DNA from: Eledone cirrhosa
Taxonomy: Eukaryota
Length of the DNA: 64,000 nt
NCBI GenBank assembly: GCA_964016885.1
Contig: OZ024741.1
Location: 137,702,001 to 137,766,000 of the forward strand
Direction of reading: 5' to 3'
The position numbers were made by a program, and so were the translations under genes. The notes under the pieces are model-generated. The model was not told the origin of the DNA. It saw only the letters and a list, made by a program, of their open reading frames with translations, and ran no database searches. Shown here in pieces: positions 1-46,192 of the stretch (the first letter of the stretch is position 1; every line of letters begins with the position of its first letter).

Positions 1-1297
1 ACATTAGGGGTCAACCTGTCAAATATTACAACCTCTTCCTCCTTCTATAAATCATTCTATGGCGTACATATATATCTATACACTTATCTTTGTGCGTAGA
101 TGTGTGTGTGTATATGTCTCTCTCTCTCTCTATATATATATATACAATGTATGTCTACATATATATATATATATATATATATACTATATCATATAAGCCT
201 GATATTTATATATATATATATATATATATATATATATATATATGTGTGTGTGTGTGTATATATATATATATATATATATATATATATATATATATATATA
301 TATATATATATATATATGTGTGTGTGTGTGTGTGTGTATGTGTATATATACATGTAAAGAGAGAGAGAGATCTCATATTGATTAATACCGGAAAGATGAT
401 TTAAATGCTATCCTCCAAAAATATAGGAGACCTGATTCCAATGCTTACAAAATAGTTTACATAGAATTTACCCACGGGTTTGATGGTGCTATTAAACCAG
501 ATGGCGGATATAGTATGATATTTCAATAAAACACTTTATCTCAACTAAGTGTTGCTTTCCAATTCGTATCTACTATTCCATATTCTGATTAGTCGATCCG
601 TGTTCCTTTTCTTTAGTGCGCAAGACATTGTATTTTCACAGTTGTATTTGTGTTTTCTATTTGTATTTGGTAAAGTGCTGCCCTATGTACAACCATGGCT
701 ACGGAAATCAAAACATCAGTTCCCTCGATACCCGATACTGTATATTAGATTACCGCCTGGCAACGTTGTCTTCTACTATAGCCTCGGGCTGAATAATTAC
801 CGTACACATGCAGCCACACACACAAACACGCACACACACACACACACACACACACACACACACACACACACACACACACACACACACACACGCACGCACG
901 GTCGCAAATACACACACACACACACACACACACACACACACACACACACACACACACACACACACACACGCACGCACGGTCGCAAATACACTCGCATATA
1001 TATATATATATATATATATGTAAGTATGTATGTATACGTACATACATATATGTATACAGACGTACAGTAGCATGCATATATATATATATATATATATATA
1101 TATATATATATATATATATATATATATATATATATATATATATATACATACAGGTAGACATTTTCATTCTATTACAACTTATCGTTTTCGGTGCACCTGG
1201 CCGAACTCACTCGATATGCAAATTAGGCTGCTCAGCCGTTAATTTTCATAAGGAAAGTATATACTTTCGAACGTTCAACCATCTGGCAGAAGGGTAT

Positions 1298-1340
1298 ACG
1301 GTGCTGATGATAGCTAACAAGCTTGAAACTAGTACATCGT
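1298..1340 (+). ncRNA. Minimal type I hammerhead ribozyme (family A)
   Basis: acggtg-CTGATGA-t-agc-taacaa-gct-t-GAAA-ctag-TA-catcgt. Stem I 6 bp, palindromic stem III ACTAGT, GUA triplet, predicted cleavage after 1334. Confidence 0.85.
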
Positions 1341-1768
1341 TCCTGTGTCAGTGTTGAACAAAAAGGTGACGTGGTTGCCTTAATACCGTACGGCATAAAT
1401 TCAGGCTGTCCGCTTGTTTACAAACGGACAAAGCGGGTGTTATAATAAACGTCCGCTAAACTGATACGTACATATATGTATGTGTACCTGTATGTATATA
1501 TATATATATATATATATATATATATATATGCATGCTACTGTACGTCTGTATACATATATGTATGTACGTATACATACATACTTACATTTAAGTAAGTGCC
1601 GTACTAAGAGTGATAAATGAAATTTCGTTTTCATTCTATTACAACTTATCGTTTTCGGTGCACCTGGCCGACTGAACTCACTCGATATGCAAATTAGGCT
1701 GCTCAGCCGTTAATTTTCATAAGGAAAATATATACTTTCGAACGTTCAACCATCTGGCAGAAGGGTAT

Positions 1769-1811
1769 ACGGTGCTGATGATAGCTAAGAAACTTGAAAC
1801 TAGTACATCGT
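1769..1811 (+). ncRNA. Minimal type I hammerhead ribozyme (family A), stem II mutated
   Basis: Same as 1298-1340 but stem II reads agc-taagaa-act. Confidence 0.75.
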
Positions 1812-2872
1812 TCCTGTGTCAGTGTTGAACAAAAAGGTGACGTGGTTGCCTTAATACCGTACGGCATAAATTCAGGCTGTCCGCTTGTTTACAAACGGAC
1901 AAAGCGGGTGTTATAATAAACGTCCGCTAAACTGATACGTACATATATGTATGTGTACCTGTATGTATATATATATATATATATATATATATATATATAT
2001 ATATATATATATATATATATATATATATATATATATATATATATATATATATATATATATATACGCATGCTACTGTACGTCTGTATACATATATGTATGT
2101 ACGTATACATACATACTTACATTTAAGTAAGTGCCGTACTAAGAGTGAGAAATGAAATTTCGTTTTCATTCTATTACAACTATATATATATATATATATA
2201 TATGGGGTAATGTTATTTTCAAATATTTGCTCACTAGATACAGTAGTGAACGGAGTGGCTAAAATCTGTAATATTCATGTATATTTACATGTGTTGTAGT
2301 TCCTTTAGGTGTGTCTATGTAGGCTTTCTGTATCTACGTACATTTGTGTGTAACTGTTTTAGTGTTTGTCTCAAGCAACTCATAGACACTCGACAAAAAA
2401 TGTAATGTTCTTCCCGTAAAATAAAACATTACGTAAAATATATTAAACTTAACAACAAAAAAGAAAAAAAACGCAACATTACAGGCAACCAAATATATTT
2501 ATAGCATATTTATATATTTTCGTATGTTGTATTATAATATATCATGGTATGTTTTATATAATTTAACTACTGAACAATGACTTATGGTCCTGCTATTTAA
2601 AAGGGTAATACATTTTTTGACAGAGGTCATGTAATTAGGTTTTTATTTCTTCCTTCCACCTTTCCTTCTTTCTTATATCCATTTGTTCTTTCTTTCCTTC
2701 TCTCTATGTGTCACACACTCAACTTCTCTCATTTGTTTACGTTCTGATATATCTCAGTATATTAATCACACATTACTATTTCGGATCATTTATTTTATGT
2801 TATCCATTTATCTCATTTGTAACACCACTCATTTATCTCCTATGTGACTCTCTATCAATCTATACACTGACA

Positions 2873-3130
2873 GTGAAGGCGCATGAATTTGTGGTTACGC
2901 TGTTCGACCCACGAACTTTTGTGAGTTCTATTTCTATGGCGCATTGTATCCTTGAGCAAAACACATTATTTCACGCTGCTCCAGTCCACATATCTTGAAA
3001 AATATGAATTTTCCTGTAATTCAAAATGCGACGATGGCATGCTTAATCTCTATCACGAATAAGTTATGTTTGCACGATTCCGGGAAATACTCAGCCACCT
3101 TAACATTCATTTCATAAGCACTCTTTTTCT
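2873..3130 (+). mobile_element. tRNA-derived SINE, decayed
   Basis: A/B-box-like head followed by tgtatccttgagcaaaacacattatttcacgctgctccagtccac, similar to 33021-33300 and 35219-35331. Confidence 0.6.
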
Positions 3131-44025: not shown

Positions 44026-44345
44026 GCCCGGATCTCTGGATCGCGTTGTATGATTCCTCGGCCTTTCACGGTTTAAGATGTTACCAACAGAGGAAGAGGT
44101 AAGTGTGTGGTGTGTCTCCTCGCGGTTTCTGTTTCCCCTGGAGTTGCGGACGTTTTTTAATCTACTGCGGTTTAAGGCTTCTATATTTTGCGTATTGCGT
44201 TTTTTTTCGTTTTTTTCGTTTATAGCTTTTTCTAGCAAACAAGATGGCTGGCAAACCCTTCAAGGAACTCATATGTCTGCTGGGCACACAAGCAATATGA
44301 AGTGTTTCTTTTTCCTGCCAGCGATATATCAAACATATCGGTTTT

Positions 44346-44418
44346 TCATCTGAGGATAGCATTCTCATAATCAACAGCAAATGCAAGATATGGAGAACCG
44401 TGGAAATAATCATAATGA
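44346..44418 (+). ncRNA. Hammerhead ribozyme with large loop II, decayed (second copy at 39340-39427, minus strand)
   Basis: Consensus of the two copies: tcat-CTGAGGA-tac.gttctc-(30-45 nt)-gagaaccgtg-GAAA-taatta-TA-atga. Confidence 0.65.
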
Positions 44419-44666
44419 TTAAACGATATATGTAACCTCAGCATCTTATTTTGTTTTAGTCTACACATTTATTATTATTACTATTATTACTATATATATA
44501 TCTATATAATTTGTATTGGAATATATTAGTATACATATGTATAAAAAGCAAACATATTTGCATATACGCTTATAAACATTGTGCATGTATATATATATAT
44601 ATATATATATATATATATATATATATATATATATATATATATATATATATATATATATAGGTGGAA

Positions 44667-45630
44667 AAAAAAACGATTATTAGGAAGAAAAAAATAATTT
44701 TCTCCTTATTTTTTTTCTATTTTTTTCTGGTTTAGAAAATGTTTAAAACAAAATATTTTGCTTTGTGTGAAGTGTGAAGGTATTAGTTAATTTATATATT
44801 AATTAACAATACCATTTATTTATTTATTTATTTAATATAATGATTATCAATTACCGGTTTCACCATTTTATGCATTATCAAATTATGTGAGTGGGAGAGA
44901 AAAAAGCGGGAATTTGTATTGGTTAAGATGTTGAACATGTTATTGAAATGAGAACCGGAACGAAAATGAATCATGGTCCAAAATCCCTACGTTCTCTATG
45001 GAGTTACCTCCCTCACGCCCTACCTAATCCTTTTTCTTATATAAATGAATTACCTTCTCTCCTCTCTTTCTACCCGACCACCCTGAATTACCTCCCCTTG
45101 CATATTAATTCTCTAAAAAGGGAAAACACATACAATTACAGGCGGACATTTCCCTCCATCATGGACCATCTTCTTTAAGCGTTCGTACCATAATTACATA
45201 TTTTTAACTGCTTTTCCTAAAAAAACAATGCTTGTAAATGATATTATTCTTTCTTTCACATTACCTTATCATGTTCCACATCACTCCCTTTTTTACTTCA
45301 AAAACCTTGTTTGTAAATAATATTATTCTTTCTTTCCCATTTCAATAACATGTTCAACATCACCTTAACCCATACAAATGCCCCCTTCTTTTCTCTCCCA
45401 CTCACATAATTTGATAATGCATAAAATGCTGAAACCGGTAATTGATAATCATTAAATAAATAAATTAATAAATAAATAAATCAATGCTATTGTTAATTAA
45501 TAAATAAATTAACTAATACCTTAACACTTCACACAAAGTAAAATATTTTGTTTTAAACATTTTCTAAACCAGAAAAAAATAGAAAAAAATAAGGTCAAAA
45601 TTATTTTTTTCTTCTTAATAATCGTTTTTT
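44667..45630. repeat. Fold-back element (arms ~285 bp) with decayed HHR
   Basis: Arms ~44667-44950 / 45338-45630. aat-TTGATAA-t-gcat-aaa-atgc-t-GAAA-ccgg-TA-att at 45408-45443. Confidence 0.85.
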
Positions 45631-45768
45631 GCTACCCCCTCTCTCTCTCTCTCTCTCTCTCTCTCGCTCTCTCTCTCTCTCTCTCTCTCTCTCTCTCTCT
45701 CTCTCTCTCTCTCTCTCTCTATATATATATATATATATATATATATATATATATATATATATATATAT

Positions 45769-46192
45769 ATAAGTATGTATACGTACATACATATATGTAT
45801 ACAGACGTACAGTAGTATGTATATATATATACATACACGCACACATATATATATGTACGTATGGATTCACCGAACATTTATTATAATGCTCGGTGTGTTT
45901 GTAAACAAACATCCCGATTTAAGTTGTACAGTGTCTAGCAACCATCGTTGCTCATTTGTTCAACACTGAAAAAGGAACGCTGTACTAGTTTCAAGCTTAT
46001 TAGCTATCGTCAGCAACATATACCTTCCTGTCAGATGATTGAACGTCTGAAAGTATATACTTTCCTTATGCATATTAACGGCTTTCGTTTCATTTTTTCC
46101 GTTTATCGTTTTCGGTGTACCCGGCCGATTAACTCACTCGACATGCAAATTAGGCTGCTCAGCCGTTAATATGCGTTTTATTTGTTCCGTTT
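45769..46192 (-). mobile_element. Family A HHR element with internal inversion
   Basis: HHR at 45977-46019 (minus): atgttg-CTGACGA-tagctaataagctt-GAAA-ctag-TA-cagcgt. ~46083-46192 is in the opposite orientation. Confidence 0.85.

Follow-up and report, generated by a model that had tools for sequence, protein, structure and literature searches.

A non-coding hammerhead retrozyme of Eledone cirrhosa with two fixed 3' ends, very probably moved by a Penelope element

Introduction

How a repeat that encodes no protein, carries a predicted ribozyme and lies in TA tracts comes to be copied through a genome is the question raised by the 64,000-nucleotide stretch of Eledone cirrhosa DNA analysed here (contig OZ024741.1; hereafter 'the window'). 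The retrozyme class, the idea of a circular template and the 'tail' of Penelope elements (PLEs) have all been described before. In the parts of the retrozyme papers drawn on here (PMC7229834; bioRxiv 10.64898/2026.07.22.740005), a PLE helper is inferred from co-occurrence and repeat homology, and the mechanism is called unresolved.

The repeat of the window, family A, supplies end-level genomic evidence of PLE copying. It places the start sites exactly, shows that two-arm insertions strictly take one end of each kind, and points to a candidate enzyme that is young and intact. The choice between circle and multimer, and two-ended PLE priming, thereby become testable in one in vitro assay. We are confident that family A is a retrozyme that owes its mobility to a PLE with two start sites, and hold it somewhat probable that a Penelope-type reverse transcriptase (RT) copies it in trans from self-cleaved RNA ligated into a unit-length circle.

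The repeat unit and its copies

Family A, a tandem hammerhead element that encodes no protein, is a non-LTR retrozyme; each repeat unit, 418–471 nt long, holds a single type I hammerhead with covarying pairs. An earlier note on the window had listed six loci (1017, 7565, 9793, 30765, 33790 and 45769), and all were found at these positions; its head-to-tail periods also held (418 nt at 33791/34209; 471 nt between the two predicted cut sites of the first locus), as did its view that no credible ORF is present (the longest ATG frame of the tandem majority sequence is 47 aa in sense and 60 aa in antisense). GC content is at most 0.44 in the 1-kb bins containing family A loci, consistent with the low GC of non-LTR retrozymes, and family A RNA is highly self-paired (z −7.7). 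The features of the window are listed below, with S1 and S2 denoting the two sites of 3' ends defined in the next section.

1017..2181, + strand: A2 two-arm insertion; short minus arm 1017-1146 from S1, plus arm of ~2 units ending at S2
1304 and 1775, + strand: hammerhead cores of the A2 insertion 1017..2181; predicted cuts 1334/1335 and 1805/1806
7563..8127, − strand: A1 insertion with two arms; the minus arm (7563-7988, 424 nt) runs from S2 and contains a hammerhead at 7866
7988-8127, + strand: plus arm of the A1 insertion 7563..8127; ends at S1; the whole insertion has TA flanks on both sides
9792..10000, − strand: older single arm of family A from S2; 199 nt, without ribozyme, TA flanks on both sides
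26547..26606, + strand: family A fragment (S1 and tail) joined to family X; junction identical to that at 30762
30481-30760: family X, another hammerhead family, adjoining the family A copy 30762..31412
30762..31412, + strand: older two-arm family A copy; minus arm joined at ~S2 to family X, not TA
31081, + strand: hammerhead in the plus arm of the copy 30762..31412, with a GUU triplet
33787..34583, − strand: A1 reference insertion; the minus arm (33787-34270, 484 nt, period 418) runs from S2
34262-34583, + strand: plus arm of the A1 reference insertion; ends at S1; the insertion as a whole has hammerheads at 34088 (−) and 34339 (+)
34044..34102, − strand: type I hammerhead in the A1 reference insertion; CUGACGA core, predicted cut after 34058
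35480..39190, + strand: coding PLE; 5'-truncated ORF 35568-37553, own hammerhead, TA flanks, one tailed and one untailed end
45764..46192, − strand: A1 insertion with two arms; the minus arm (308 nt) runs from S1 and contains a hammerhead at 46013
Same insertion, + strand: plus arm, internally deleted, whose end lies at S2-like sequence before TA
46250..46982, − strand: sister family B, a distant relative of A; same layout, one tailed and one untailed end

The 471-nt copy represents a separate subfamily, A2 (~75% identity to A1), whose unit length varies with an internal TA run. Periods across the family are 418, ~428 and 465–471 nt, and copies range from dimers to arrays of at least 24 units; family B has a period of ~467 nt at one locus (L051) and compensatory changes in its hammerhead. 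Copy lengths, which the earlier note had given as 1, 1.15 or 2 units, are instead continuous (longest arm 2,293 nt; median 474). The placement of all loci in (TA)n stands for five of the six at their outer 3' ends, the left end of 30765 joining family X, and an inversion with a ribozyme is present except at 9793, a lone 199-nt arm with neither. We estimate ~40,000 family A loci in the genome (range 17,000–79,000), besides long satellite arrays, and the repeat is present and variable in contigs of four sequencing runs (run kind unrecorded). Most sampled loci were chosen by likeness to the window copies, and the sample is therefore young and biased.

The single type I hammerhead per unit, with its predicted cut after GUA (1334), is assigned by a descriptor scan together with covariation, since an Rfam scan gave no hammerhead, either at the gathering score or with E values of up to 10 allowed. 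The descriptor matched 70 times (all families) against 4 in reversed controls; seven pairs have changed on both sides, and 89% of cells are paired, compared with 31–55% in slid controls. In the hammerhead at 34044..34102, stem II has a U-U mismatch at its base, and stem III consists of one pair with a palindromic loop. Self-cleavage of family A would likely need a dimer. A palindromic helix III requires one in an earlier study, in which the circle model was already proposed (PMC4209133), and among Xenopus retrozymes one of nine dimers was cleaved in vitro.

Two fixed 3' ends and paired arms

Of 135 outer 3' ends of family A, 118 lie at one of two fixed sites separated by 56 nt. The sense 3' end recognised at that stage is real and corresponds to S2 (unit position 263–276; 64 ends), but it is one of two, the other being S1 (unit position 209–219, upstream of S2; 54 ends). 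TA abuts 110 of the 118 site ends (background 7.2%), the longer internal TA runs of the unit (136 and 159) capture merely ~2 of 135 ends, and 24 of 69 5' ends likewise lie at TA. An empty-site comparison of TA targeting with TA addition, covering 89 insertions, yielded no informative site.

Every two-arm insertion with both ends on a site (31 of 31) combines one S1 with one S2 (p ~1e-9), and five of five A2 two-arm copies, counted by eye, do the same; the S2 arm extends past S1 in 29 of the 31 pairs. Exceptions are 11 of 42 two-arm insertions with one end off-site and a three-part insertion (L030) whose inner pair is S1/S1. Rather than one 3' end followed by random 5' inversion, as first proposed, the inverted arm is a second copy starting at the other fixed site. 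The S1+S2 pattern matches the known Penelope 'tail', which is defined by two internal RT starts (PMC11167929), here in a retrozyme; a genome search using the tail alone, in which common words were skipped, returned no matches. This two-site pattern strengthens the original case for a retrozyme-like, TA-associated, non-coding element moved in trans by a PLE.

The template

Copies read seamlessly through the ribozyme, which excludes a single cleaved linear monomer as the template, as had been argued from the window copies. The cut-site junction shows no indels in ~91 aligned passes, and the site was passed 125 times against 11 stops nearby; read-through occurs in 24 of 25 loci picked without requiring it (by eye) and in 7 of 8 loci of a random sample. 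The two arms of an insertion are of one haplotype, with differences at 8 of 275 common-variant site pairs where independence would give 46.5. Between adjacent units the count is 20 of 368, against 61.6 under independence, and is slightly above the 11–15 predicted for one re-read circle; unit site 47 differs in 4 of 24 adjacent-unit pairs. Stops just after the cut site are about twofold in excess (12 versus 5.3 expected in the first 20 nt; p 0.009, one bin of 21), which points to some linear cleaved templates.

Two further readings of the variants were set aside. A figure of 25–40% mixed-template insertions proved mostly an artefact of choosing loci by likeness to the window copy, and dropped once query-private sites, the window and eight array-like or edge-cut loci were removed. 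Template A-to-I editing is unsupported, rare variants being symmetric (38 versus 35); common variants (at least 4%) lean towards A>G (8 sites versus 1 T>C). Long arms were likewise rejected as proof of rolling-circle copying because four loci (L217, L219, L221 and L124) show DNA-level duplication patterns; L217 is an array of at least 24 units with matches over ~20 kb, and L218 is another long array.

A ligated circle can be called plausible rather than demonstrated, because long arrays could yield uncleaved multimers and a purified anole PLE worked in vitro on RNA that had not been processed, ribozyme cleavage not being required (PMC11167929). That such a circle is the main template we consider on balance probable. 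The same enzyme and start sites might instead act on a linear multimer, either uncleaved or cut in part, that long arrays give on transcription, with the ribozyme trimming or acting late and circles a side product, which is possible though doubtful. Arrays of more than 10 kb exist, dispersed copies are 97% like the L217 array, and the slight excess of adjacent-unit differences and of near-cut-site stops, the weak, dimer-dependent type of the hammerhead and the role of unprocessed RNA as main substrate in vitro would all suit such a template. However, array units differ at many shared sites, whereas the units of dispersed insertions are mostly of one haplotype; nor is any inversion junction or parental flank common to any two independent insertions, so ordinary loci were not read-through templates. 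It is improbable that the RT jumps from the 5' end of a cleaved linear monomer to the monomer 3' end, rebuilding the ribozyme without ligation: the stop excess past the cut site would fit, and the joins between family A and other elements hint that template switching can occur, but RT template jumps usually add or lose bases, and both the indel-free junctions and the ratio of passes to stops speak against them here.

Another reading makes family A merely the pseudo-LTR (pLTR) that belongs to some longer coding PLE, or else a satellite that DNA recombination has scattered. Arrays do grow as DNA, and many Xenopus retrozymes match PLE pLTRs (24 of 57 retrozyme families matched known elements, nearly all PLEs). 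Against this, arms pass from unit to unit and never into a common ORF, the 5' flanks of 47 single-arm copies share no upstream coding sequence, and no ORF with RT and GIY-YIG, which would mark an autonomous PLE, lies between family A repeats. A family A pLTR was found in none of 26 loci of the window's PLE, 29 loci of the coding family P and 30 GIY-YIG loci (one dispersed copy lies nearby); on the sequences compared, none of the coding elements found here has family A as its pLTR. Fixed 3' ends, random 5' ends and TA flanks are moreover marks of retrotransposition, and this explanation is largely refuted for the sampled loci and very unlikely overall.

The helper

The earlier note had looked to the PLEs of the window for the enzyme. 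The coding element at 35480..39190, which we take to be a PLE from its motifs and which also has Atlas neighbours with GIY-YIG, was left unnamed as a protein by Pfam and PDB searches. It resembles family A in age and habit, yet shows neither homology to it nor a junction with it, and was rejected as partner. At three loci, family A is directly joined to one young coding Penelope family, P, which makes a tentative and rather doubtful candidate; some loci of P, such as L304, retain an intact frame. Comparison of family A with family P or the window's PLE gave low-complexity matches and no further homology, a small part of the 10,596 GIY-YIG candidates having been compared.

Proposed mechanism

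Under the circular reading, a locus carrying two ribozymes would be transcribed, the paired hammerheads would excise a 418–471 nt monomer, and a host ligase would close it. A PLE RT-endonuclease, probably a dimer, would break a TA tract, and cDNA would be primed from the DNA ends at S1 and S2, both internal to the same RNA molecule, through 3–5 nt of UA microhomology, each cDNA continuing through the ribozyme to a random stop. Where both ends are primed, the two cDNAs may join tail-out by microhomology to give the S1+S2 inverted insertions; some loci may expand later, as DNA, into satellite arrays.

A more specific version, which we regard as rather unlikely, is that a dimeric Penelope RT uses one circular retrozyme RNA, with its two fixed sites, to prime both break ends, that both cDNAs roll round this one circle by strand displacement and that the second subunit occasionally carries family P mRNA, yielding mixed A–P insertions. 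If true, the ends of genomic copies would document the circular intermediate and also show which enzyme was the helper.

Comparison with known systems

Non-autonomous PLEs of Chlamys, such as MRC1, are likewise non-coding passengers with head-to-tail multicopy insertions; as described in the parts of PMC8557442 used here, they share 3' sequence with an autonomous partner and belong to a clade without canonical hammerheads, whereas a hammerhead is present in family A, for which no partner of common sequence was found among the coding PLEs compared.

Non-LTR retrozymes of animals, as far as the portions of PMC7229834 and of Li et al. 2026 (bioRxiv 10.64898/2026.07.22.740005) consulted describe them, agree with family A in a tandem unit that is non-coding, low in GC and carries one type I hammerhead, in their monomers, dimers and long arrays, their highly self-paired RNA and the presence of PLEs alongside them in the genome. 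In its palindromic helix III loop and its helix II U-U pair, family A resembles the two axolotl motifs of those papers, and its unit is slightly longer than the 170–400 nt given there. The tie to PLEs in those portions rests on co-occurrence and pLTR homology, not on insertion ends, whereas for family A the ends themselves were measured, with their two fixed positions, the TA beside them and the S1+S2 inversions. Retrozymes yield circRNAs (Cervera and de la Pena 2020, PMC7229834); family A is known here from DNA, and its circles are putative.

EN+ PLEs (Arkhipova 2013, PMC3846280; Craig 2021, PMC8557442; Frangieh 2024, PMC11167929) differ in that family A has no ORF and its repeat unit is the whole element, in the length of the tail (56–59 nt in family A, 30–40 nt in EN+ PLEs) and in the short UA microhomology of the family A start sites to the target, which the anole PLE lacks. 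In both, two 3' ends lie one short tail apart, the tail marks one end of an inverted insertion (in EN+ PLEs, those with inverted pLTRs), the hammerhead lies upstream of the start sites, targets are AT-rich or microsatellite sequences, and copies are 5'-truncated.

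Two fixed 3′ ends and their pairing

The outer 3′ ends of family A, a non-coding tandem hammerhead element (non-LTR retrozyme), fall predominantly at two fixed sites, S1 and S2, and not at the single point proposed in the earlier note. The window, random stretches, and loci from three genome searches plus one further search yielded 97 insertions after deduplication, of which 94 were kept for the end map (an array duplicate, an A2 piece, and a fragment were dropped). With position 1 of the 418-nt unit set just 3′ of the predicted cut, 54 of 135 outer ends lie at S1 (209–219), 64 at S2 (263–276), and 17 elsewhere. 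TA adjoins 110 of the 118 site ends, versus 2 of the 17 off-site ends and 7.2% of random positions.

Among 42 two-arm insertions (i.e. those with two inverted copies), both ends are at a site in 31 and one end is off-site in 11; S1 is paired with S2 in all 31. Two further S1+S2 pairs (L122 and L138) have short arms that had escaped the filter, and a three-part insertion with an inner S1/S1 pair (L030) stands outside the 31. Subfamily A2 has two corresponding ends, 59 nt apart and paired in 5/5 two-arm copies. Each site terminates in a short TA(T), which could pair with a TA primer. The longer TA runs of the unit, buried in a long hairpin in the predicted fold, hold only ~2 ends; S1 is predicted to occupy a small hairpin loop in subfamilies A1 and A2 and in sister family B. 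These data are quantitative evidence for two-site priming of the kind used by Penelope-like elements (PLEs).

Some family A arms (L124 and L141) end off-site, adjoining (CAT)n instead of TA; at L124, the block ending at (CAT)n is locally duplicated.

One source for both arms

A haplotype test was applied to common variant sites, excluding query-private sites, the window, and eight loci that were array-like or cut by an edge. Differences between opposite arms number 8 in 275 site pairs (46.5 expected under independence, 8–11 from later mutation); between adjacent units they number 20 in 368 (61.6 and 11–15, respectively). The S2 arm reaches beyond S1 in 29 of the 31 S1+S2 pairs. Since the arms share a haplotype and the S2 arm extends past S1, both cDNAs of an insertion come from a single RNA or a single source locus and overlap in the unit sequence they cover. 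Such overlap would need either strand displacement or a multimer in which each cDNA copies a different unit. Overlaps at inversion junctions are mostly 0–8 nt.

Common variants at positions 38, 47, 123, 199, 317, and 322 lean A/G and often follow a U in a predicted duplex. This lean could stem from RNA editing or hairpin-templated repair, but rare family A variants have no strand bias.

Ribozyme and RNA template

The predicted ribozyme belongs to the type I hammerheads: its core reads CUGAYGA, stem II has a U-U mismatch at its base, and stem III consists of one base pair capped by a palindromic loop. An Rfam scan did not call it. In 13 copies (12 distinct) from A1, A2, and B, 89% of cells are paired (31–55% in slid controls), and both sides have changed at 7 of 16 pairs, with kinship among copies inflating the shuffle control. 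A short palindromic helix III is reported to require a dimer (PMC4209133; PMC7229834).

There are 125 passages of arms across the cut site, against 11 stops in a 21-nt window around it; the number of passages is inflated because the first search demanded read-through. Among loci chosen without this demand, 24 of 25 still cross the site, as do 7 of 8 random loci. Because arms cross the cut site and the junction is free of indels, a lone cleaved linear monomer is excluded as template, as the earlier note had argued, unless jumps are seamless. Template jumping appears improbable. On balance, genomic copies slightly favour a circular RNA: units share a haplotype, the ribozyme is conserved, no inherited parental junctions or flanks were found in family A insertions, and other retrozymes are reported to form circles (PMC7229834). 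A linear multimer is a distinctly less probable template, to which the existence of family A arrays, DNA-level duplication visible in long arms, small excesses of differences between units and of stops just 3′ of the cut site (12 versus 5.3 expected), and an anole PLE that worked on unprocessed RNA (PMC11167929) nevertheless point.

Family A in the window and genome

The window belongs to contig C2 of a 3.0-Gb genome; TA and CA microsatellites are abundant, as are repeat families bearing hammerheads. All six family A loci claimed previously were recovered, together with the period of 418 and the spacing of 471, with a cut predicted after 1334; no ORF was found, as claimed. Ribozyme and inversion are present at every locus except 9793, which lacks both, and the (TA)n setting holds except at 30765, where the left end is fused to family X, another hammerhead family. 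Two neighbouring family X copies (26547–26895 and 30481–30826) carry the same fused piece of family A, consisting of S1 plus the tail (the S1–S2 stretch); the chimera is local, because it is absent from 18 family X loci elsewhere.

In a sample of sixty 10-kb stretches, set at intervals on five contigs, 8 family A loci were counted, which scales to ~40,000 loci genome-wide (17,000–79,000); density in the window is above the genome average. Copies picked by likeness are ~2% off their majority sequence, and randomly sampled copies are 76–92% like the reference. Two similar satellite arrays, L217 (G000:C1, about 51.77–51.79 Mb) and L218, exceed 10 kb each; L217 has at least 24 units, matches over ~20 kb, and a higher-order repeat of four units.

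Family B at 46250–46982 has one tailed and one untailed end, inverted, as in family A. Its unit (also at L051:4935–6330) is non-coding, tandem, and ~467 nt long, with compensatory hammerhead changes. A classic retrozyme array of eleven units (L060:280–3400; period 310) has a different type I hammerhead.

TA-flanked elements of other families in the window, hammerhead-like or PLE and often palindromic
24660–24780
25140–25580
47600–49300
8376–9753
9038–9613, GIY-YIG fragment within 8376–9753

Coding PLEs as candidate partners

The coding PLE at 35480–39190 has one tailed and one untailed end; its family is young, and copies elsewhere keep intact frames of 830 codons. It has an asparagine-rich insert, a long 3′ UTR, a hammerhead with a CCGAAGA core, and a tail about 180 nt long. 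The suggestion that a PLE such as those in the window helps family A finds no support in this one: the two have no sequence and no junction in common.

Family P, a coding PLE with ~45% protein identity to the window PLE, makes up 1.29% of the random sample in copies 97–98% alike. Its hammerhead is its own variant, with an atypical CAGAAGA core ~20 nt before the first end of the element; the element's tail is ~90 nt.

Family P coding PLE loci
L051:1382–4372
L304
L224
L296

At three loci (L051, L172/L224, and L296), family P joins family A directly, with no TA between them. The layout at L051 and L172 is tail-out, resembling a two-arm insertion from two RNAs, and their ends are S1+S1 and S2+S2, unlike pure family A insertions. 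Family P matches 2 of 45 non-TA 5′ junctions (about 0.3–0.6 expected, estimated from its genome share); L051 served to define the family. These fusions hint weakly at partnership; successive insertions into one TA tract plus deletion could look alike. Families X, F1, B, and H likewise adjoin family A, and none of 29 family P loci has family A nearby.

Relation to known systems

Non-LTR retrozymes with circular RNAs and a PLE as helper are put forward in PMC7229834 and bioRxiv 10.64898/2026.07.22.740005, and circular templates for PLEs in PMC4209133; a tail on one inverted pseudo-LTR appears in PMC3846280 and PMC8557442, and the PLE tail arises from two internal starts (PMC11167929). We found no published retrozyme with mapped two-site ends or S1+S2 pairing in the literature covered; Repbase, subscription papers, and supplements may contain the family or the rule. 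Family A is real, abundant, and a member of this known class, and provides a ready in vitro test of PLE-type two-site priming.
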